64,000 nucleotides of DNA, taken from positions 24,711 to 88,710 of the forward strand of contig JAEOTZ010000021.1 of NCBI GenBank assembly GCA_016839585.1. The letters are read 5' to 3'. The DNA is from Promethearchaeota archaeon (GTDB lineage Archaea; Asgardarchaeota; Lokiarchaeia; Sigyniarchaeales; SOKP01). Every line of letters starts with the position of its first letter. The stretch's first letter is position 1. The notes below the pieces were generated by a model. It saw only the letters and a program-made list of their open reading frames with translations. It was not told where the DNA came from and ran no database searches. Of the stretch, positions 24,380-37,695 are shown in pieces. A program made the translations under genes and the position numbers.

Positions 24380-25303
24380 TTAAATCCCTCTACTCTGTAG
24401 CCATCCCTCCATCGTTAGGGAGTTAAAAAGACGAATATGTTTTGAATCTTTAGTATGAATTGCTAAATGATTATTCTCAGAATTTCCTTTAACAGCAATG
24501 AACATTTCCTCGCCATCTCTCACTAAAACATATCTATCCTCACGTTCATAACTTCTTAGAGTAATGTTATCAAGACTAGTAAATTCTTCTAATAATTCAG
24601 AATGTTCATCTATTCCAGGATTAATTAAACAAGAGATCCTCATACTTACAGATGACTTCACTTCATAAAGATATAACTCTTGTAAATCAAGAATAGTAGG
24701 AACGACAATCATGACATTGTGCAAACCTTTTTCTAGAATTTCTCTCATTTTTTTAAGAATTTCAGATTTTGTAATTTCAGTTTTGGTGAAATCAATGATT
24801 TTTAAACCTGATAAGCTTGATTGTGTTTGTCTTAATTTCTTATTTTCTAATTCTAACGTCTCTAAATCGACATCTGCCTTAGATAATTCATCATTTAAAA
24901 TTTCTATCTCTTTTTGGAGTTTGTTGATTTTTTCATCTTTTTCTTTAAGAAGATTTTCATCAGTTACAGATGATGCCAGTGCTTTCAACTCCTCCTCTTT
25001 TAATTTAATTGTTTTTCCTAATGTTGCTATTTTTTCATCTTTAGCTTTTATTGAATTTTCAATATTTTTAATTTGCTGATCTTTTAATTCTAATGAATCA
25101 CGAATAGTCTTTATTTGATCATCCTTTAACTTTATTGAATCTTTAAGAGAATTTATAAGGCTATCTTGAGTTTGAAATTTTTCATTTAATTTATTTATAG
25201 ATTCTTCAACTTTTCTTAATGTCTCGTCTTTTTTTTCATTTTCAGCTTGTAGCTTATTGATGAGTGCGTCTTTAGATTCATCATTTACCATTATGATATT
25301 CAC
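24380..25303 (-). CDS. Coiled-coil protein with C-terminal TrmB/PLD-like alpha/beta domain
   Basis: 14-residue repeats (SIKLKDDQIKTIRD / SLELKDQQIKNIEN / SIKAKDEKIATLGK), then VMIVVP...VLVRDGEEMFIA. Confidence 0.65.
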   Translation of the reverse strand: MNIIMVNDESKDALINKLQAENEKKDETLRKVEESINKLNEKFQTQDSLINSLKDSIKLKDDQIKTIRDSLELKDQQIKNIENSIKAKDEKIATLGKTIKLKEEELKALASSVTDENLLKEKDEKINKLQKEIEILNDELSKADVDLETLELENKKLRQTQSSLSGLKIIDFTKTEITKSEILKKMREILEKGLHNVMIVVPTILDLQELYLYEVKSSVSMRISCLINPGIDEHSELLEEFTSLDNITLRSYEREDRYVLVRDGEEMFIAVKGNSENNHLAIHTKDSKHIRLFNSLTMEGWLQSRGI

Positions 25304-25523: not shown

Positions 25524-26261
25524 ATGGAAAAACACGATAATATGATAAAAGTATTAAAATCGGATGTCTCTGAACTGATAGAAAAAGAACTTCAATCGGC
25601 ACCAGCCATTCTAGGTATTAATGTTGGAACGCCTGAAGGAACTAGAATTGCGAGTAAATTCAAAAAAGAGACAAGAATGTCGATGAGTGAAGTAACGGCC
25701 GCTAGTAGTAGCCTCGTTTTTCTATCATCAAAAATTTTGAAGGATTCATTAAACCAAAAGATTTCTTATCATTTAATTACTGGAAAAGAAAAAATAATCC
25801 ATTCTATTTTAACAGAAAACATTACGATGATTTCCTATCTGAATCGAGAATTAGCAGAACTCGAAGGACTAAGTACTTACATAAATAATTTATATAAGTT
25901 AAGTCTACAGATATCAGCAATTATTGAAACTTCTGATATCCTCAAAGAACAAGTTTTTGTAGCTATAAAGAGAGCAATTCCTAACGCACTTGTTATAGCT
26001 ATTATTACAAAAGACGGTTTACCCATTAAAATTCAAGCAACTATGCCTGAACCTATACTATCAGCTATTACTTCCGCAATATATAATTTAGCTGGTGTTT
26101 TATTAGAAGAAGGGTTAGAGTTTTCGATAATTGGAGGAGAAAATGGTTCAATTATTATTCATGAAATAGATGAGAATCGTATATTGGCAATAGCGGTTCC
26201 AGAGGCAGACGAAAGGAAATTAGGTTCTTACATTGCTAAAATAAAAGCAATTATTCAATAA
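25524..26261 (+). CDS. Tandem Roadblock/LC7 (LAMTOR/MglB-like) domain protein
   Basis: Two units: ILGINVGTPEGTRIAS..VTAASSSL and ALVIAIITKDGLPI..LSAITSAI..IGGENGSIII. Confidence 0.75.
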   Translation: MEKHDNMIKVLKSDVSELIEKELQSAPAILGINVGTPEGTRIASKFKKETRMSMSEVTAASSSLVFLSSKILKDSLNQKISYHLITGKEKIIHSILTENITMISYLNRELAELEGLSTYINNLYKLSLQISAIIETSDILKEQVFVAIKRAIPNALVIAIITKDGLPIKIQATMPEPILSAITSAIYNLAGVLLEEGLEFSIIGGENGSIIIHEIDENRILAIAVPEADERKLGSYIAKIKAIIQ

Positions 26262-27568: not shown

Positions 27569-29773
27569 TTAAAGAATTTTCTTCAATTCTAATATCAAAG
27601 AAGATGGATTATACTTATCAAATTTATATACTTCTGCATTACCAAATTTTTTAAAGTTCTTTTTAATGTTATCTGCTGAATAAGTATGTACTCCTAAAGC
27701 CTGAGTAGCGTAAGATTTTTTTGGTTCTAATACAACTATATGGACTTTTTGTTTTGATAATTTTTTTGTTAAATCCTTCAATTCTTCAGTTACTAAGGCA
27801 TAATCATTCTCAACTTGTGCAATTAAATCAGGATATTTTACTGAAATATTGGCTCCACAGTCAGAAAATATAAAGATTACCGGGATAATATTTCGATTCT
27901 TTAGTTTCTCTGCTTTTATTAAATCTGAACATTTCTTTAATGCTGCTGCCATTGGAGTATAAGATTTTCCCTCTATTTTTTTCAATTTATTTACAGCGCT
28001 TTTAAAATTTACTGTAGGTTTTTGGAGAACAATTGCTTCTTTACCTCTAAAAATAATTAAAGCAATTTTATCCTTTTTACGATACCCTTCTTTATGGAGA
28101 GATAATATAACATCAGTCATTTGCTTTATTACATAATACATTGACGCAGAACTATCGAGAACGAAAAAGAGAATTAAAGGAGCACGGTATTCATAAATTT
28201 TGTCCATTAAATCATATTTGTTAAAGTGTATTGGAAATTCAACGTCAGTTTGATTATATACTTTGTTTTTCAAATAATTTCTTATAGTTGCATCTAAAGC
28301 AATACTTTTTGGAAGTAGATTGATTGGTCTCCTATATGAGACATATCTCCCTTTTTGTGAAGATGATATTTTAATCCGTCTTCCTATACCTCTTCCTCCA
28401 TAATCAGAAATTTTTCGATCTTTTCTAATATTATCCAATATTGAGGTCATTTTTTTTTCCATTTTATAAATGAATGTCCTATTACTCAATTTGTCCTCAA
28501 AAAATCGAATTTCCTCTTTTTCTCTAGGAATATTTTTTACTTTCCATCCTCCTGCAGGTTTAGGACTCCTTTTTTTGTTATCAGGGTATTTAGGAGGGGG
28601 TAGTTTCTGTTCCTTTGTTTCAGGTATATCAACTTTTTTAGGATCTACCGACTGACGTTTAAATTCCTTTTGTGGAGTATCGTCATGTTTTAAAGGACCT
28701 TCTGTGTCTTTACTAGGACGGTATGCTTCTGGGTCCTCATAGGCTTTCTGAATTTTACCATAGACTTCCGCAATTTTAGCCTTCACCTCCTTAGGGGTCA
28801 TTTCGTAATGAAGTGATAGAATTCTATGCTCAAACACTAAATCCATTGCCACATCTAAGTCTTCTTCAGTAATGATTTTCCTATCACTAAATGCGGCATG
28901 AGCTCTAGCACACCGGATGAATGTTATATCTGCTCTTTGAGAAAAGATTTCTAACTCATTAACTATTTTAGAAACAAACTCGTAAACAGAAGCGGGAATC
29001 TGGACTTCGTGAAGAATTTCTCGTGCTCTTACAATTTTGTGTTTTAAAATCTCTTGTTCACTTTTATAGCGTTTAATAAATTCTTTAGGATTATCATCAA
29101 AGTCAATGACTTTTTTTGTTATTTCAGCTCGAAGTTTATTATCTCGAGGAGCTTTTATTCTAACTTCTAATCCAAGCCGATCTGCAATTTGAGGTCTTAA
29201 TTCCCCTTCTTCAGGATTCATACTACCTACTAAAACAAATCGGGAAGGATGTGTAACAGATATTCCTTCACGTTCAATTATATTAATACCTGAAGCTGAA
29301 GCATCTAGAAGCGTATCGACAATATGATCTTGTAATAAATTAATTTCATCAATATATAATATTCCTCTATTTGCTTTAGCTAATAATCCAGGATGAAGTT
29401 CTGATGTTCCCTCTGTTAATACACGATCAATTGATAAGGAACCGCAAACCATATCTTCTGTTACACCAAGAGGGAGGTTAACCAATCGCATCTCTCGAAA
29501 TTCAGTTTCAATTTCCTTTTTCTTTTTCAATCTACAATCTTCACAAAGATCATCAATATTAGACTTAGGATCACAGGAAAACTGACAATCTTTAACAACT
29601 TCGATATCTGGCATTACCTCAACCAAAGATCTTACAGCAGTGGATTTTCCCGTACCTTGATGTCCCGTTAAAAGCACTCCTGCTATTTGGGGATCGATGA
29701 CATTTAGTATTAGTGCCAACTTCATCTTATCTTGTCCTAATATAGCAGTGAAAGGATAGTTAATTTTTTTCAT
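27569..29773 (-). CDS. chlD: Mg/Co chelatase ChlD-like subunit (AAA+ ATPase, Pro/Lys-rich linker, VWA)
   Basis: YPFTAILGQ, GHQGTGKS, PGLLAKANRGILYIDEINLL, GSMNPEEGELRPQ; MIDAS LDSSASM, TPMAAAL, FSDC. Confidence 0.85.
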   Translation of the reverse strand: MKKINYPFTAILGQDKMKLALILNVIDPQIAGVLLTGHQGTGKSTAVRSLVEVMPDIEVVKDCQFSCDPKSNIDDLCEDCRLKKKKEIETEFREMRLVNLPLGVTEDMVCGSLSIDRVLTEGTSELHPGLLAKANRGILYIDEINLLQDHIVDTLLDASASGINIIEREGISVTHPSRFVLVGSMNPEEGELRPQIADRLGLEVRIKAPRDNKLRAEITKKVIDFDDNPKEFIKRYKSEQEILKHKIVRAREILHEVQIPASVYEFVSKIVNELEIFSQRADITFIRCARAHAAFSDRKIITEEDLDVAMDLVFEHRILSLHYEMTPKEVKAKIAEVYGKIQKAYEDPEAYRPSKDTEGPLKHDDTPQKEFKRQSVDPKKVDIPETKEQKLPPPKYPDNKKRSPKPAGGWKVKNIPREKEEIRFFEDKLSNRTFIYKMEKKMTSILDNIRKDRKISDYGGRGIGRRIKISSSQKGRYVSYRRPINLLPKSIALDATIRNYLKNKVYNQTDVEFPIHFNKYDLMDKIYEYRAPLILFFVLDSSASMYYVIKQMTDVILSLHKEGYRKKDKIALIIFRGKEAIVLQKPTVNFKSAVNKLKKIEGKSYTPMAAALKKCSDLIKAEKLKNRNIIPVIFIFSDCGANISVKYPDLIAQVENDYALVTEELKDLTKKLSKQKVHIVVLEPKKSYATQALGVHTYSADNIKKNFKKFGNAEVYKFDKYNPSSLILELKKIL

Positions 29774-29926: not shown

Positions 29927-30874
29927 CTAAAACTTTGATAACTCATCAATTCTCTGATCTAATTTAGATATAACCTCATCCCATTTAGATAAAATTTCTT
30001 CTACTTTAGGAATAACTATATCTCTTTCCTTATATTCTAAATAACCCAAAAATTCTTTAATATTTTCAATCTTCATGAAAGTTTCTGCAACATACTTACG
30101 AATTTCGGATTTTTGGTTATCTAGAACTTCAGGAACTCTGTTGTGTTCCCCACGTCGTATTAATGTCGCTATATATTCTTCTGTTCCTTGCAAAAGGGAA
30201 TTTAATTGATTTATCCTTTCCATAATAAAGTTTTCATAGGTCTCAAAAATACTATCTTTTGGAAAGAAATTAGTGATATCAATAATAAATTTCTGGGTTA
30301 GCTTAACTAATTGCTCCATATTTTCATATCCCTCAATTCTATATTCAACTATATGATAAGATGCTTCGATACCTTTATTAACATCATTCAATCTAAAAAT
30401 TTTGAAACCAGGATCATTTTTTAATCGCTTTTCGGGATCCCCTTTTTTGTCTGCTACTTCAATTTGACGTATTAACCTTGTTGGATTAAATACGAGAGAA
30501 ACTGCTAATGGGTTATTGGTTTGATAAGACAATGTGGTTTTAATATCTATGTGGCTCATCATTACTTTAAAACCGGGATGAGAATGCCACCAGCCTACTG
30601 TAAATTCTTCTCGAGAAAACGCCTTATCATCAATAATATATAAAGCTTCATAATCTTCATCTGACCATTTATATTGGTCGATAACTGCATCCTTATCGAG
30701 TTTTTGATGCATAATGGGATAGGCTGCAGCAATCATTACGTCATCACCTTCATTTTTACCAATAAAAACACCACTTACTTCAAGCCAATCATCTTTTGGG
30801 ATTTTCTGGTTCGCAAATCTCACAGAGGCAGCAACTATTGTCAAATAAACCTTCTTCGGAATAATAACAGTCAT
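29927..30874 (-). CDS. MPN+/JAMM metalloprotease (Rpn11/CSN5-like) with helical C-terminus
   Basis: EVSGVFIG ... GWWHSHPGFKVMMSHID: complete E...HSH-x7-S-x2-D motif. Confidence 0.88.
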   Translation of the reverse strand: MTVIIPKKVYLTIVAASVRFANQKIPKDDWLEVSGVFIGKNEGDDVMIAAAYPIMHQKLDKDAVIDQYKWSDEDYEALYIIDDKAFSREEFTVGWWHSHPGFKVMMSHIDIKTTLSYQTNNPLAVSLVFNPTRLIRQIEVADKKGDPEKRLKNDPGFKIFRLNDVNKGIEASYHIVEYRIEGYENMEQLVKLTQKFIIDITNFFPKDSIFETYENFIMERINQLNSLLQGTEEYIATLIRRGEHNRVPEVLDNQKSEIRKYVAETFMKIENIKEFLGYLEYKERDIVIPKVEEILSKWDEVISKLDQRIDELSKF

Positions 30875-31040
30875 GTTCTTAAATCATTTTTCTAATTATT
30901 CAAATGGAATTATATTGATTAATACAAATTTTACTATTTATGTTTTAGTTTGAATATAAAATTATATAACTATGAAATTTATATTATAATATTATTACAA
31001 TATTCAATTCTCAAAATTATATGCAATTTTATAGATAATT

Positions 31041-31694
31041 ATGTCATTAGATTTCGAAGTTCTTACAAGTCAATTAGGTGTTCCTGGCACTTCCTATAGA
31101 CTTCAATTGGGATTAATTAATGGGAAATGGGCTTGTAGATTATTGAAGGGAAAAGACGTAATTGATTCATATGTATTCAAAGATGTAGATGTGCATGATG
31201 ATATTCCTAATCAAAATCGAATTGTCTCGTGGGTCTTAATGACTGTAGCTATTCCAAATATAAACCCTCATCAAATTATGAAAACAACCCAGGCCTTGGT
31301 CAAACAAGCACTCAAAAAGAAGGAAGAAAGAAAAGCAGTAGCACCCATATCTGAAACAAAAAAAGTAGAGTTAGAGAGAGTTCCCGAAAGTGAATTGAAA
31401 CGATCTAAAGTGGCAGGATGGGTTAAAGAAGAGGGAATGAAAACAGTTCAGGAATTAGAAGTTGAAAAACGACAAGCATTTAAAGAAAGGATGATAACTA
31501 AAAGGGAAGAAGAAAGAACTCGAGAGGCTTCTACTTTAAAAACCTCAAGAGAATTACCATCTATTCCAACAGGTGCAGGTGGATCAAATGTATCTGCTGG
31601 TGCTGAGGTATCAAAATTTTGTCCATTTTGTGGAAAAGATTTAGACTGGAAATTCTGCCCTTATTGTGGGAAACCTCTACCACATGAAGATTAA
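31041..31694 (+). CDS. Hypothetical protein with charged linker and C-terminal zinc ribbon
   Basis: FCPFCGKDLDWKFCPYCGKPL. Confidence 0.75.
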   Translation: MSLDFEVLTSQLGVPGTSYRLQLGLINGKWACRLLKGKDVIDSYVFKDVDVHDDIPNQNRIVSWVLMTVAIPNINPHQIMKTTQALVKQALKKKEERKAVAPISETKKVELERVPESELKRSKVAGWVKEEGMKTVQELEVEKRQAFKERMITKREEERTREASTLKTSRELPSIPTGAGGSNVSAGAEVSKFCPFCGKDLDWKFCPYCGKPLPHED

Positions 31695-31835: not shown

Positions 31836-33311
31836 TTGATATCTGATAAAACTGTCATCATTAAACCACTCGCGTATTATAAAATGCTCATTCATGTTTT
31901 ACGTTTTGGTTCTAAAGTAAGAGATCGCAAACAATATAAAGAGGTAATGGGGATCTTAATTGGTCGTCTTGAGTCAGGAGAACCTGATAAAAAAGGGATC
32001 AATGATGTAATTGTGGAAGATGCAGTACCAATTTCCCATGGCGGCTCAATAGAGGTTGCTTTTGCCCCAGAAGATTATGTAACATTCTCCATGGTTGATG
32101 CAGAATTTGCAGAAAAAGGATGGTTTAGTGTAGGGTGGTATCATTCACACCCTGGTTTGAAGATATTCTTTTCGAGTACGGATATAAAAAATATGCTTGG
32201 TTGGCAAACTCCTAACCCAAGCGCTATTGGAATTGTTTTCGATCATACTTTCTTAGAAAAACCTGGAGATATGGGATTTCGCGCATTTAGATTAGATGAT
32301 CCTTCTAAAGGTCAAACAACAGGTTATCATGAAGTAAAAACTGTAGTTGCACCTCCAGATAGTCTTGAATATTACCTAAAACTTATGGAATTGATTAACA
32401 GTGTTCACTCTAAAGAACCAACAATCTTAGAAATTAATGAAATGCCTGATTTATTTGGTGATATTGCTATTCCTAGTCAAGATCAATTAATAGCTAAGAA
32501 ACCAGAATTAGAATTAACTAAAATATTTTCTGCTATACAGAATGGAATATCAAGTTTTTTAGAGTTTACAATTGAACCATTTGTAACATTTCTTAATGTA
32601 TGGAGTCAAGAAATGATTAGAAAAACAATTGAATCTAATTTAGAAATGAGAAATAATATTTTAGCTATAAAGGAAAAGATTGGAAATGGTATCTCTAATA
32701 TACAAAAAGATTTTAAATTTTCCTTAAAAGATAAATTGAATCAATTAGATACGTATATCGATGATAAATTTGATGAATTTGATAATAACAATGAAAGTCT
32801 TAAAGAAATTATAAGTCAATTTAAAATTGAACTTAATGATAAATTGAAGGTTATATTTGAAGAAAAGCTAAAGGTTTCTCTAGATCAAGGTATAAACTCG
32901 TTTAAAGAAACTCTAGAAAATTTAACAAAAATAAATCAAGAAAGTTCTAATGTTTTTGAAAAATTAGAGAGTGAAAAAAATTCTCTAAATAGTATATCAG
33001 AGAAAATTAATTCTATTGAAGATTCAATCAACAATAAATTAAAGAATCTACAAGACGAAGTTATAAATAAACTATCCAAAAACACCAATAAAATTGTAGG
33101 AAATTTTATTAATTTAAATAAAGACACAAAGAGTTTCTTATCAGATTTAAAAGCCGCAATTATATTACTGGAAAGTTCAAAGAATCCTATACAGAATAAA
33201 ATAAAAACCCTAGAAATGGAAAATAAGACCCTCCAAAAAGATTTATTAGAGTTGAAAAATGAAAATCAAGATTTAATGAATAAATTAAAAAAATTAGAAG
33301 GAGGAGAATAA
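31836..33311 (+). CDS. MPN+/JAMM metalloprotease with long coiled-coil tail
   Basis: EVMGILIG ... VGWYHSHPGLKIFFSSTD (intact JAMM), IVFDH, AFRL; long heptad-rich C-terminal half. Confidence 0.9.
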   Translation: MISDKTVIIKPLAYYKMLIHVLRFGSKVRDRKQYKEVMGILIGRLESGEPDKKGINDVIVEDAVPISHGGSIEVAFAPEDYVTFSMVDAEFAEKGWFSVGWYHSHPGLKIFFSSTDIKNMLGWQTPNPSAIGIVFDHTFLEKPGDMGFRAFRLDDPSKGQTTGYHEVKTVVAPPDSLEYYLKLMELINSVHSKEPTILEINEMPDLFGDIAIPSQDQLIAKKPELELTKIFSAIQNGISSFLEFTIEPFVTFLNVWSQEMIRKTIESNLEMRNNILAIKEKIGNGISNIQKDFKFSLKDKLNQLDTYIDDKFDEFDNNNESLKEIISQFKIELNDKLKVIFEEKLKVSLDQGINSFKETLENLTKINQESSNVFEKLESEKNSLNSISEKINSIEDSINNKLKNLQDEVINKLSKNTNKIVGNFINLNKDTKSFLSDLKAAIILLESSKNPIQNKIKTLEMENKTLQKDLLELKNENQDLMNKLKKLEGGE

Positions 33312-34721
33312 TTGAAAATGCCCGAAAATGAATTAAACAACAATCAAGACAAAAATGAGAAAGATCAAACCATTTCAACGAAAAAAGGCAAAATTATAAT
33401 AAAAAAAGAAGCTTTCAGGAATATGATAACCCATGTTTTAAGATTTGGAAGCATTGTATTAGAAAAGAGTGTAGAGGTTATGGGGATTTGTTTAGGAGAA
33501 TTAACTGAAAATGAGAAAGACATTGTTTTAATTAATGCTATTCCGATCACTCATGGAAAAAAGGTATCAGCAGGTTTCACTAAAGAAGATTATGATTTAT
33601 TAACACAACTCGAAAAACAATATCAAAAGAAGAATCTCAATATCGTAGGATGGTATAGTTCTCACCCCGGGTGGGGTCTTTATTTTTCTGACATAGAAAT
33701 AAAAACTCATCAATTTTTTCAAAAGGAAAGTAATCCTAACGGATTTTGTATTGTTTTTGATCATACTTTAATGGATAAAGATAAGTCTTTTGGTTTTGAG
33801 ATTTATAGATTTGATGATTTTAAAAAAGCAGATAAATATCATAATGTAGTATTTGAAATTGAAGAACCAGCAGACCTAGATTACTTTAAATGGGTTCAGA
33901 AATTTGTAGAAGATTTTCAAAAACAGACACCTATCTTAATTAAAGAGATTAGTGAATCAAAAGAATCAATTCCGGGTGAATTACAAGAAATACCTATATC
34001 AGAAGAGATATCACCAGCAGAAGAATTAGATGACTATTCACATATTTTACCGATAATTTCAGGATTTCAAAAAGGAGTGTCTAAATTTTCTGAATTGATA
34101 ATAGATACCTTCAAGGCTCAATTTGGAGATTGGACTAATAATCTTAAAGAAGGATCTTCGAAAGGTTCAGAATATTTACGTAATAGCATAAATAAAATGA
34201 AAGAAGCAGCCTCTCAAAGTCTTATTAAAGTAGAGAATTGGTTTAACAAAAATATGGATAGTATGTTAAATGGATTTAAAGAAACTGTCGTTAATTATGT
34301 AGACAAAAGAGTTGAAGCTCAGACTCAGTTAAGAAATGAACTAAACAATATAAAAGAAGATCTATTTAATGATTTAAATATTATTGTTGATGAAAATTTA
34401 AAATATATTAAAAGTGAAATAGCATCTGTCGTTAAATTAACAACAGTCAAAGTAAATAATAGCGTTCAAATAAATTCTAAGATTGAAGAGATGACAGGCA
34501 GCATTTCTAAAGTAATTTTAGCAATTGAAAATGAATCAAGTGATCTTGGTAGTAAAATAGAAAAAAATATTGAAACAACGATCGATCAATTTGAAACAAG
34601 TATTAATGAAAAAATTGAAAAAATGAGTTCAGAATTACAACCATTTAAAGAATATTACTCAGAAATTAGTGAATTGTTAGAAAAGTTACAAAAAATAATC
34701 ACAGATTTTCGCAATATTTAA
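33312..34721 (+). CDS. Degenerate MPN (predicted inactive JAMM) protein with long coiled-coil tail
   Basis: EVMGICLG ... VGWYSSHPGWGLYFSDIE: first His to Ser and Asp to Glu, confirmed in DNA (TGG TAT AGT TCT CAC ... GAC ATA GAA). Confidence 0.88.
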   Translation: MKMPENELNNNQDKNEKDQTISTKKGKIIIKKEAFRNMITHVLRFGSIVLEKSVEVMGICLGELTENEKDIVLINAIPITHGKKVSAGFTKEDYDLLTQLEKQYQKKNLNIVGWYSSHPGWGLYFSDIEIKTHQFFQKESNPNGFCIVFDHTLMDKDKSFGFEIYRFDDFKKADKYHNVVFEIEEPADLDYFKWVQKFVEDFQKQTPILIKEISESKESIPGELQEIPISEEISPAEELDDYSHILPIISGFQKGVSKFSELIIDTFKAQFGDWTNNLKEGSSKGSEYLRNSINKMKEAASQSLIKVENWFNKNMDSMLNGFKETVVNYVDKRVEAQTQLRNELNNIKEDLFNDLNIIVDENLKYIKSEIASVVKLTTVKVNNSVQINSKIEEMTGSISKVILAIENESSDLGSKIEKNIETTIDQFETSINEKIEKMSSELQPFKEYYSEISELLEKLQKIITDFRNI

Positions 34722-34781: not shown

Positions 34782-35066
34782 TTAGAAAAACTGTAAACTT
34801 GAAACTCTAGAAATATGTAATCTATATTTAGGAATGTTAGTACTCAATCGCTTTAATTGATTCAATTTAGCAATTTTACCTAAAACTCTTCCTATTTTAT
34901 CAACTTTAATGTCAACTCCAAAATTTTCCTTTAGAACTGAATTAATTTTATAGGATGATAAAATAACTACGCTTGAGATATTTTTTTCGCATAGCAACTC
35001 AATTGCTTTTTTTACTAAGCGAATCAGAGTTTCTTTATTATCTATCTTAGTTTTTTCCATTCTCAA
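34782..35066 (-). CDS. Small basic protein, possibly winged-helix
   Basis: LSSYKINSVLKENFGVDIKVDKIGRVLGKIAKLNQL; helix-turn-helix-like pattern. Confidence 0.5.
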   Translation of the reverse strand: MRMEKTKIDNKETLIRLVKKAIELLCEKNISSVVILSSYKINSVLKENFGVDIKVDKIGRVLGKIAKLNQLKRLSTNIPKYRLHISRVSSLQFF

Positions 35067-35346: not shown

Positions 35347-37695
35347 ATGAAAAAAAAAGAGTTTATATCAAACCTTCGAACAAAGATTGCAGCCTTTAAG
35401 TCAAGAACAGGTGAAAAATTAAAGGATTATACTGATAAACTTGTTCACAAGGAAGTTTATGTTGATGGACAAGAACCTCCAAAATTTTATTCATTTGAAA
35501 AAAAATTTCTTGGCTTGTATATTATTTTTATAATATCATCTTTAGTTTTAATAATAGCAATTAACTTTTCACAAAATAATTTTATTGATACAATAATTTT
35601 TACTGTTTCAAATGCAATTGTTGCATTCTTCCTGCTACTATCTGCATTATTAAGTGTAGATAAGTTTAGATTATTTTTATTTGAAGAAAGAACTTTTATT
35701 AAACAAATTATTTTGTATTTAGCTTTATTTACTTTACTTATTCCAATTTCTTTTTATATCTCAACAGACATTAACTTCATAACTTATTTATCGATTTTTG
35801 CAATGATTTGGTTATTTCTTCTAAGCAGCAGATTCTATATTTATTCTAGGAAATTTGCTACAAAAATTGAAGCAAGATTTATTAAAAAATATTCCATCCC
35901 TAGATATCTTGTCGCCATTATTATTCCCTTTTTAATATTAGTTGTTCTTGTTATTCTTTCACTATTTTATAGGAGTTTCTTAGTGTTTCTTTCATTAGAT
36001 ATTTTTGGCAAGATTGATCCTAGTGCCGCTGTTAAAGTGTATAATCTAGAAATGCGTGTTGTTATGCCGCTAATTTATTTTAGTTTGGTATTGACCTTGG
36101 TATTTATAATTTTTGAATTCGTTTTTACTAGAAGGCGTGCAGAAACAAAAAGAGCTGGAACCTTTGACAATTTTACTTTTTCTTTAATTGTTTTATTCAT
36201 CTTTTTCTTTCAAATTTTAGAAATCAGTATCTTTATGTTATTAAGACCAGAAACAATAGATGCATTTAAAGCAACGGTAGGAGCTACTGTCTCGCCTGTT
36301 GGCATTATTTTAATTTTTGAGTTTATTATATCTATGTATTTTCTATATAGGGTTGTCAAAAAAACTGGTAGAACATTAGGATGGCGTATTTTTATATTTA
36401 AGAAAGACGGATTAGTTTTATTCTTTTTAGCATGTGTACTCGCTCAAACTATGACACGTTTTGCACTAACAAATGAAATAACAAATCAAGAAGTAACTCC
36501 AATTGGGATTTGGTTAATGGCGGATAAATATGTAATTTCAGTATTGATGATTTTTCTCTTAGGTAGTACTTTATTAGTCTATTATATAAAACCTCATGAG
36601 ACTTCAATGTTTATGAGACTTCAAAAAGAATTAGTATATGATGAAGAAAAGAATATTGAAAAAATTTATAAGATTATAAGAAGTGAATACATCCGGAGGG
36701 GAGAGGCTTTTCCAATTGAAATACTTGAGCGTGAATTAATTAAAGCAACTCGACTATCAAAAAGTAATGTTTACTCTCTAGTTGAGCAATTAGCGACTAA
36801 AGATATGGATATTCTTATAAATGAGAGAAAAGAAGAATTTGGTACACCCGTAAAATTTATAGATTTCACCTCTGTTACCGAACGATTTGATAGAAAAGGA
36901 AAAGCACAAGAAAAAGCTAAAAAATATTTAGCTAAAAGATTATATGAAACTAGTTTAGCGGAAAAGAGTGAAAAAAGCAGATTAAGAGCTGTCAGCGAAT
37001 CAGAAAAAGCTTCAGATCAACTTATTGCCTCTCTTACTACAAACTATGCAAAAAAGCAAGTAGACGAACAAGAAATGAAAAAAGTAAAAGAAGATGCAAA
37101 AATAACCAAAGATTTGAAAGTAAAATTAACAGATGCTTTAAAAAATCAGCTGTTACAAATGATTAAGGATGAATATTTTTATAGGATTGAAAACAATGAA
37201 AAGTTTCTTGACTTATATATCCCTATTTCTGAAATATCAGATCAAATTGAATTAAATACAAGAATAACTCCTGGAGAATTATATCCTATCTTAGAGAGGC
37301 TCAGTAGCGCTGATTTGGAATTGGTTCTAATAGAGAATCCCGATGAACCTGAGGATAAAAAAATCAAATTCTTACCTTTTTCTGATGATAGTATGAACTT
37401 CTCTTTAGCTAATTTTAGACCGGAAGAGTATGCTAAATTTAGAGTTCATGTAACTAAAAATTTTCATAGAGCTCTTAAAACCAAGAGAGAAAAAAGAGTT
37501 ATATATCAATTGAAAAAAGAGGTTTCAGATAAAAATGAAGATCAAAAATCGTGGTTTAATCTATTAGATAATTTATATAAATACTATCCTTTATATGCTG
37601 AAAAATTATCATCTGTTCCTAATACAACAAAACTTAGAAATCAATTGAGGAAAATGGAAGAATTTTATGAGAGAAAACGTACCTTAAACAGCTAA
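35347..37695 (+). CDS. Polytopic membrane protein (about 10-11 TM) with a soluble C-terminal half containing two related winged-helix-like units
   Basis: Hydrophobic aa ~55-415; KIIRSEY..PIEILERELIKATRLSKSNVYSLVEQL vs QMIKDEY..PISEISDQIELNTRITPGELYPILERL. Confidence 0.7.
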   Translation: MKKKEFISNLRTKIAAFKSRTGEKLKDYTDKLVHKEVYVDGQEPPKFYSFEKKFLGLYIIFIISSLVLIIAINFSQNNFIDTIIFTVSNAIVAFFLLLSALLSVDKFRLFLFEERTFIKQIILYLALFTLLIPISFYISTDINFITYLSIFAMIWLFLLSSRFYIYSRKFATKIEARFIKKYSIPRYLVAIIIPFLILVVLVILSLFYRSFLVFLSLDIFGKIDPSAAVKVYNLEMRVVMPLIYFSLVLTLVFIIFEFVFTRRRAETKRAGTFDNFTFSLIVLFIFFFQILEISIFMLLRPETIDAFKATVGATVSPVGIILIFEFIISMYFLYRVVKKTGRTLGWRIFIFKKDGLVLFFLACVLAQTMTRFALTNEITNQEVTPIGIWLMADKYVISVLMIFLLGSTLLVYYIKPHETSMFMRLQKELVYDEEKNIEKIYKIIRSEYIRRGEAFPIEILERELIKATRLSKSNVYSLVEQLATKDMDILINERKEEFGTPVKFIDFTSVTERFDRKGKAQEKAKKYLAKRLYETSLAEKSEKSRLRAVSESEKASDQLIASLTTNYAKKQVDEQEMKKVKEDAKITKDLKVKLTDALKNQLLQMIKDEYFYRIENNEKFLDLYIPISEISDQIELNTRITPGELYPILERLSSADLELVLIENPDEPEDKKIKFLPFSDDSMNFSLANFRPEEYAKFRVHVTKNFHRALKTKREKRVIYQLKKEVSDKNEDQKSWFNLLDNLYKYYPLYAEKLSSVPNTTKLRNQLRKMEEFYERKRTLNS

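Follow-up and report, generated by a model that had tools for sequence, protein, structure and literature searches.

To our knowledge, all eukaryotic JAMM complexes are built on a pair of MPN domains of which one is active and the other dead, and because this arrangement originated before the last eukaryotic ancestor, the steps that led to it are not visible. In the PCI complexes (the proteasome lid, the COP9 signalosome (CSN) and eIF3), six PCI subunits surround the MPN pair. In the deubiquitinase BRCC36, bundles formed by helices alpha4 and alpha5 support activation by the partner protein KIAA0157 (PMC4579573). The archaeal protein CsRpn11 forms a dimer through helices H1 and H4 in its crystal, and according to the study that described it, no pairing of MPN+ with MPN- subunits is known from archaea (PMC6043591). 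We analysed two tandem MPN genes in a window of 64,000 nucleotides (the whole stretch of DNA examined) from a Lokiarchaeia (Promethearchaeota) archaeon, for which a sequence-only reading had proposed a protease/pseudoprotease heterodimer that is either ancestral to or convergent with the eukaryotic design. A literature search of papers available without subscription returned no description of this pair; a paper on ESCRT names MPN in a legend and nowhere else.

A tandem pair of MPN genes in Lokiarchaeia

The two genes both match Pfam JAB (E 7e-12 for gene 1, 1e-15 for gene 2) and share 28% identity over 449 aa with the tails included (E 2e-45), which bears out the paralogy claimed from the sequence alone; the claimed reading frames, their coordinates, the TAA stop of gene 1 (33309-33311) and the embedded GGAGG were likewise all found (Table 1). 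The active sites also read as had been described: gene 1 carries the full E...HxH-x7-S-x2-D motif (E36, H103, H105, S113, D116), and gene 2 has E55, S116 (codon AGT), H118, S126 and E129 at the corresponding positions, with His replaced by Ser and Asp by Glu. The His-to-Ser change is common to independent genomes (L002-L004) and is therefore not a sequencing error. By fold and motif, gene 1 is a predicted JAMM/MPN+ metalloprotease, and gene 2 in this genome is a predicted pseudo-DUB, an MPN fold that has lost its zinc ligands.

Table 1. Features of the MPN gene pair and its upstream neighbours (window positions)
Feature	Position	Strand	Remarks
g0, third MPN gene (315 aa, intact JAMM, shorter helical tail)	29927..30874	-	
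Conserved protein with a zinc ribbon (217 aa), upstream of gene 1 in the same orientation	31041..31694	+	
Gene 1 (predicted MPN+/JAMM protease, 491 aa)	31836..33311	+	ORF list, Pfam JAB
Gene 1 zinc-ligand segment H103-x-H105...S113...D116	32142..32183	+	codon of catalytic E36: 31941
Gene 1 helical rod (~248 aa, ~37 nm), periodicity mainly hendecad	32556..33299	+	
GGAGG Shine-Dalgarno-like motif for gene 2, within the last codons of gene 1	33300..33304	+	
Gene 2 (paralogous MPN, predicted pseudo-protease in this genome)	33312..34721	+	ATG 33318 is the likelier start (467 aa); 469 aa if read from TTG 33312
Degraded zinc site of gene 2: S116 (for His), H118, S126, E129 (for Asp)	33657..33698	+	E55 codon 33474 retained
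Gene 2 helical rod (222 aa, ~33 nm), ungapped register with the gene-1 rod	34050..34715	+	

The sequence-only reading had the stop codon of gene 1 abut a TTG start of gene 2; the letters are as it gave them, but the start is probably the ATG, because an ATG lies 0-9 nt past the gene-1 stop in most of the relatives listed, the TTG is retained in the closest relatives only, and close homologues of gene 2 are annotated as 467 aa. The exact abutment is likely incidental, and we rejected it as the main evidence of coupling. Across 70 syntenic pairs the intergenic gap ranges from -35 to +57 nt and is mostly 0-12, with a Shine-Dalgarno-like motif near the end of gene 1 in 55 of the 70. A scan for sigma-70 promoters returned fewer sites than in shuffled sequence.

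Homologues are labelled Promethearchaeota or Lokiarchaeota. The gene-1 profile finds 128 of the 134 genomes of the host's family, mostly with two matches each and with gene 2 usually adjoining, as well as 4 of 14 genomes of a second family and, in another, more distant long-tailed relatives; outside the class, the gene-1 query returned only three weak matches in about 190 genomes. Searches of the closed genomes G032, G038 and G300 yielded neither gene, so the pair is dispensable in part of the order. About eight MPN genes are present in this genome, two of which sit elsewhere in Ubl-E1-E2 operons (C61, C89); Ubl and E1/E2-like genes are part of the gene set, and no Ubl, E1, E2 or E3 gene adjoins the pair. 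At the family level, most loci keep the order g0-ZnR-g1-g2-wHTH-membrane protein. The gene g0, which the sequence-only reading had missed, is an older paralogue from the Lokiarchaeia clade to which the pair also belongs, and a candidate partner of the pair. The older linkage of the zinc-ribbon (ZnR) gene is head-to-head with g0, and a search of the ESM Atlas with its product returned its own cluster only.

Catalytic loss and selection on gene 2

The E/H/H/S/D set of gene 1 is retained in all 113 complete homologues and at all 68 readable loci, and a 69th locus has an in-frame TGA downstream of an intact motif. In gene 2 the same set is intact in 63 of 120 homologous proteins and at 29 of 69 syntenic loci, and degraded at the other 40. 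The degraded states comprise Glu to Gln alone, second His to Arg alone, and first His to Ser, Ile, Leu, Val, Asn or Cys with Asp kept or replaced; these routes of loss are mutually exclusive, and the exact combination seen here, His to Ser with Asp to Glu, is confined to a small clade. Since about half of the gene-2 orthologues are intact, including a clade of 19 genomes in which the motif is almost invariant, a pseudo-enzyme partner is not a general property of the system. The proposed protease/pseudoprotease pair therefore stands for this genome, where gene 2 appears to be a selected pseudo-protease, but not as an enzyme with a fixed MPN- partner. The sequence-only reading had also held that orthologues of gene 2 that mostly kept the motif would indicate lineage-specific decay or sequence error; about half do keep it, which bears this objection out in part, but the cause appears to be repeated selected loss rather than either of these.

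When a tree of both genes was built after the motif columns had been taken out, dead gene-2 lineages fell among intact ones, and of the three most distant pairs two are active/active. A loss-only (Dollo) count gives 10 losses, or 7 after branches under 95 are collapsed, and every one of these 7-10 affects gene 2 (two-sided sign test calculated by hand, p about 0.016-0.002). A single origin of dead gene 2 was rejected (p-AU 5e-6; gene-1-only tree, with the dead copies as one clade), and the AU test also rejected sisterhood of two lineages with the same dead motif. In deep gene-2 copies the Ins-1 loop remains similar to its gene-1 counterpart, which suggests that the ancestor was a near-identical active twin.

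The loss of zinc ligands appears to have left purifying selection on gene 2 unchanged. For the gene-2 MPN domain, median dN/dS is 0.126 where the site is degraded (15 pairs) and 0.127 where it is intact (11 pairs), in sets of pairs that are not fully independent, compared with 0.09-0.095 for gene 1. When this genome is compared with four relatives, its gene 2 gives 0.09-0.12. Conservation of alpha1, alpha4 and the linker (0.71, 0.67 and 0.62) is as high in degraded gene-2 lineages as in intact ones, a comparison in which the intact set is richer in close relatives; in these same degraded lineages Ins-1 falls to 0.45 and the JAMM segment to 0.61, and the strand that carries the Glu is also relaxed.

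Predicted architecture and rival explanations

AF2 models of both products consist of an MPN head (aa ~5-191 in gene 1, ~27-202 in gene 2), helix alpha4, a linker that is conserved although modelled with low confidence, and a single unbroken helix (248 residues, aa 241-488, in gene 1; 222 residues, aa 247-468, in gene 2). In Foldseek the heads match the Rpn11, CSN5 and BRCC36 folds, with BRCA1-A chain 6gvw_B as the top match of gene 1, and gene 2 matches the Rpn11 fold; a fold search of the ESM Atlas found no clusters other than MPN ones from Promethearchaeota and eukaryotes, at TM <0.4, and a separate Atlas search with the gene-2 tail gave no usable match. Matches of the tails to apolipoprotein, MCP and SNARE-like proteins were read as generic amphipathic-helix matches, not homology. 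The tails, which had been described as long and heptad-rich, are indeed long and helical, but their periodicity is mainly hendecad (11-residue, 3.64-3.70), with heptad stretches in the distal part only. The gene-2 rod measures 222 aa in 116 of 129 orthologues, the two rods align without gaps in 6 of 7 alignment windows, and in distant pairs they are equal or jointly shortened (193/195, 194/191, 193/192 and 100/78 aa). Across relatives, gene-1 and gene-2 distances correlate (r 0.96).

Prediction of the full-length complex gave a weak pass at 0.49 (runs 0.49, 0.48 and 0.56; best of three controls 0.00), with at least 56% of contacts shared among runs and partner pLDDT at least 65. The mark applied is reached by 58 of 80 solved and 2 of 110 mismatched pairs, and passes at scores up to 0.60 comprise only 7 solved pairs and both mismatches; the pass may also reflect likeness to solved MPN heterodimers. 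The prediction returned no interface by which to judge a shared bundle of the C-terminal helices. Because of the predicted complex, the coupling of the genes and the conserved interface helices, we consider it likely that genes 1 and 2 form a heteromer.

The best explanation of the whole, which we hold to be reasonably probable, is a heteromer mounted on a rod, in which gene 1 is the Ubl isopeptidase and gene 2, whose own activity has ceased to be required, provides a scaffold. A long-tailed Rpn11-like JAMM gene would have duplicated in tandem within one Lokiarchaeia order, as the trees support, and the layout of the genes suggests that both products are made together from a coupled pair. The chains would assemble in parallel, 1:1 or perhaps, by analogy, 2:2, with the MPN heads packing through helices alpha1 and alpha4 and two in-register hendecad helices forming a rod of ~33-37 nm that spaces or tethers the heads. 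Gene 1 would be an essential zinc isopeptidase acting on ubiquitin-like conjugates or precursors, a role suggested by its family and by the Ubl/E1/E2 operons of the genome. Gene 2 would originally have been a second active subunit, whose catalysis, but not its scaffold role, became dispensable within the heteromer, so that zinc ligands could be lost independently 7-10 times and always from the same partner. In this genome gene 2 would be a pseudo-DUB scaffold and possibly, by analogy with the effect of KIAA0157 on BRCC36, would activate gene 1. A more specific form, which we put forward only tentatively, is a BRISC-like deubiquitinase of Lokiarchaeia, an obligate heteromer on a hendecad rod of ~35 nm, in which gene 2 turned from co-catalyst into allosteric activator 7-10 times.

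The two products may instead form separate homo-oligomeric rods, with gene 2 binding Ubl or serving a purely structural role, its catalysis optional, and co-expressed with gene 1 but unbound. Shared ancestry of two such homo-oligomers would account for the in-register rods, the conserved helices and the correlation of distances, and the CsRpn11 homodimer forms through H1/H4 (PMC6043591); we nevertheless regard this arrangement as unlikely given the near-invariant translational coupling across the whole family, the joint changes in tail length and the pass, weak as it is, of the heterodimer prediction, while decay of Ins-1, the loop that binds the Ubl tail, argues against gene 2 as a Ubl reader. 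Still less probable is a pair that forms the core of a larger, BRISC-like assembly with g0, the zinc-ribbon protein and possibly an AAA+-vWA or polytopic membrane protein: the conserved gene order speaks for it, but the zinc-ribbon gene stays linked to g0 where the pair is absent and shows no linkage to the pair in distant genera, and g0 lies 10-20 kb from the pair in one genus. A modified Ser/His/Glu metal site with weak or altered activity would be consistent with the retained E55, H118 and S126 and with the conservative nature of Asp to Glu. Single ligand mutations generally inactivate characterised JAMMs, however, and in the nearest relatives residue 129 may be Ser, Ala, Gly or Thr as well as Glu, and residue 116 Ile or Thr; with position 129 so variable, no substitute set of ligands is conserved, which makes such a site in gene 2 very unlikely. 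That gene 2 is a decaying duplicate or its substitutions assembly errors is refuted by its dN/dS of ~0.12: gene 2 does evolve faster than gene 1 (p-distance 0.63 versus 0.53), but more than 120 homologues have intact frames of conserved length and the same substitutions occur in independent genomes.

Descent of the pair from the duplication that gave rise to Rpn11-Rpn8, CSN5-CSN6 or BRCC36-Abraxas is largely refuted. Both chains find their best fold matches in Rpn11, CSN5 and BRCC36, and grouping gene 1 with eukaryotic MPN+ sequences was not rejected by the AU test (p 0.16, 163 columns). In MPN-domain trees, however, whose eukaryotic members were of the MPN+ type, gene 1 and gene 2 fall together in a single clade (SH-aLRT 97-98). 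This clade lies within an expansion restricted to Lokiarchaeia (94-98), to which g0 and further paralogues also belong, and Rpn11- and CSN5-type sequences, which were assigned by motif, with two confirmed as eukaryotic, group elsewhere with other Asgard JAMMs. The trees thus support a single duplication inside Lokiarchaeia as the source of both genes, which are full-length sisters confined to one order. The gene-2 profile scores Rpn11, CsRpn11, CSN5 and BRCC36 at 48-54 bits (Rpn11 54) and Rpn8 at 24 bits, and inactivity throughout the family, which marks the eukaryotic MPN- clade (Rpn8/CSN6/eIF3f/Abraxas), fails for gene 2; gene 2 does not appear to be an ortholog of that clade. With active/active pairs among the most distant and losses that are recent and multiple, the evidence disfavours the ancestral option of the sequence-only reading and favours the convergent one. 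Because the losses post-date the diversification of the order, the dead state was neither inherited from nor passed to eukaryotes, and the active/dead design seems to have been reinvented separately in these archaea.

Implications and comparison with known systems

If the more specific form, a BRISC-like heteromer whose second subunit repeatedly turned into an activator, is correct, living genomes hold all of the intermediates (active/active, Glu-only loss, His-only loss and fully dead), and the origin of eukaryotic MPN+/MPN- pairs, and of pseudo-enzymes, from a homomeric ancestor becomes directly testable. The same outcome recurs many times in Lokiarchaeia, on the same partner each time, with selection on the dead copy unchanged, and the family offers a natural series in which to ask whether heteromerisation preceded catalytic loss and whether activation by a dead twin arose before or after it. 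These findings point to a branch of Asgard Ubl signalling that is mounted on rods and still uncharacterised; they do not demonstrate that eukaryotic pairs came from archaea by inheritance.

Among described systems, which include the Ub-operon JAMMs of Asgard archaea, CsRpn11 of Caldiarchaeum subterraneum is an archaeal Rpn11-like JAMM, as gene 1 is predicted to be. Of PDB sequences it is the one that the gene-1 profile matches best (56 bits), and the helices of its H1/H4 crystal dimer have conserved counterparts, alpha1 and alpha4, in gene 2; in contrast to the pair, CsRpn11 is small, works alone and is encoded in a Ub-E1-E2-E3 operon (PMC6043591), whereas the JAMMs of Ubl operons in this genome are other genes. 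Rpn11-Rpn8 of the proteasome lid and CSN5-CSN6 of the COP9 signalosome share with the pair an Rpn11/CSN5-type MPN core with Ins-1 and an active/dead pairing, but here gene 2 is nearer to MPN+ proteins than to Rpn8, the origin appears independent, and a search for PCI subunits found none that convince, only three weak PF01399 matches (22-23.5 bits) of a kind that control genomes also give. The pair is also like BRCC36-Abraxas and BRCC36-KIAA0157 (ABRO1), the cores of BRCA1-A and BRISC (PMC4579573), in which an MPN+ enzyme is likewise joined to an MPN- paralogue, C-terminal helices follow each MPN domain and no PCI subunits are needed. Where those complexes have a short helical bundle, each chain here has one hendecad helix of ~220-250 aa, and the partner, a sister of recent origin, has stayed active in roughly half of the lineages. 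By analogy, we anticipate that the pair works like BRCC36 with Abraxas or KIAA0157, but it belongs neither to the eukaryotic MPN- families nor to the PCI complexes.

Dead gene-2 motifs and exceptional loci

The gene-2 copies of two loci (L017 and L020) carry a distinctive dead motif that they have in common with an unrelated clade (L029-L032 and L066), a likeness confined to codons ~105-140, across which nucleotide identity is 0.82 to that clade versus 0.52 to their own relatives. We rejected a placement of L017 and L020 as sisters of the clade; either a dead active site spread by segmental recombination or the motifs converged strongly.

Two further loci depart from the usual form of the gene 1/gene 2 pair. 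Gene 1 of L088 (G199 C380) contains an in-frame TGA at a conserved Trp, directly after an intact JAMM motif. Because gene 1 reads through with the stop absent in other genomes of the same genus, this TGA is probably an assembly error or a lesion of a single genome. At L096 (G178 C10), inserted genes of about 6 kb part gene 1 from gene 2, a split found only there among the loci read.

Additional MPN genes and pairs

Genome G000 encodes two additional intact long-tailed JAMMs belonging to the Lokiarchaeia-specific clade of gene 1/2 and g0, the older JAMM paralogue, and the C-terminus of the one on C60 is helical and repeat-like. The four-gene run of G039 opens with MPNs of 203 and 246 aa, both short, fully dead and lacking the C-terminal helical rod; after them comes a long-tailed pair that is active/active. 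The second pair of this genome, at L093, is a further, independent active/dead pair, and the tails of both its genes are shortened, to about 100 and 78 aa.

Coordinates of MPN genes and of genes around the pair
Feature	Location	Strand	Remarks
Intact long-tailed JAMM	G000 C43:23769-24911		Lokiarchaeia-specific clade
Intact long-tailed JAMM	G000 C60:27061-28644		Lokiarchaeia-specific clade
Four consecutive MPN genes	L091:3947-8168 (G039 C41)		
Second tandem MPN+/MPN- pair of G039	L093:4198-6271 (G039 C78)		
Coiled-coil protein	window 24380-25303	-	307 aa
Tandem Roadblock/LC7 protein	window 25524-26261	+	245 aa
ChlI-type AAA+ fused to vWA	window 27569-29773	-	734 aa
g0 and zinc-ribbon gene	window 29927-31694		head-to-head; also G038, G040, G034, G036, G030, G213
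Small helix-turn-helix-like protein	window 34782-35066	-	
Polytopic membrane protein with soluble tail	window 35347-37695	+	782 aa

Gene neighborhood of the pair

The helix-turn-helix-like and membrane-protein genes adjoin the gene 1/2 pair throughout the family, and the latter does so in the distant G039 as well. Downstream of g0 and co-oriented with it lies the AAA+-vWA gene, which retains 76-97% identity across the family and whose product may be linked to g0 as a chaperone or unfoldase. Genomes of the order without the gene 1/2 pair still have the zinc-ribbon gene head-to-head with g0, and this persistence suggests an older functional link between the two.
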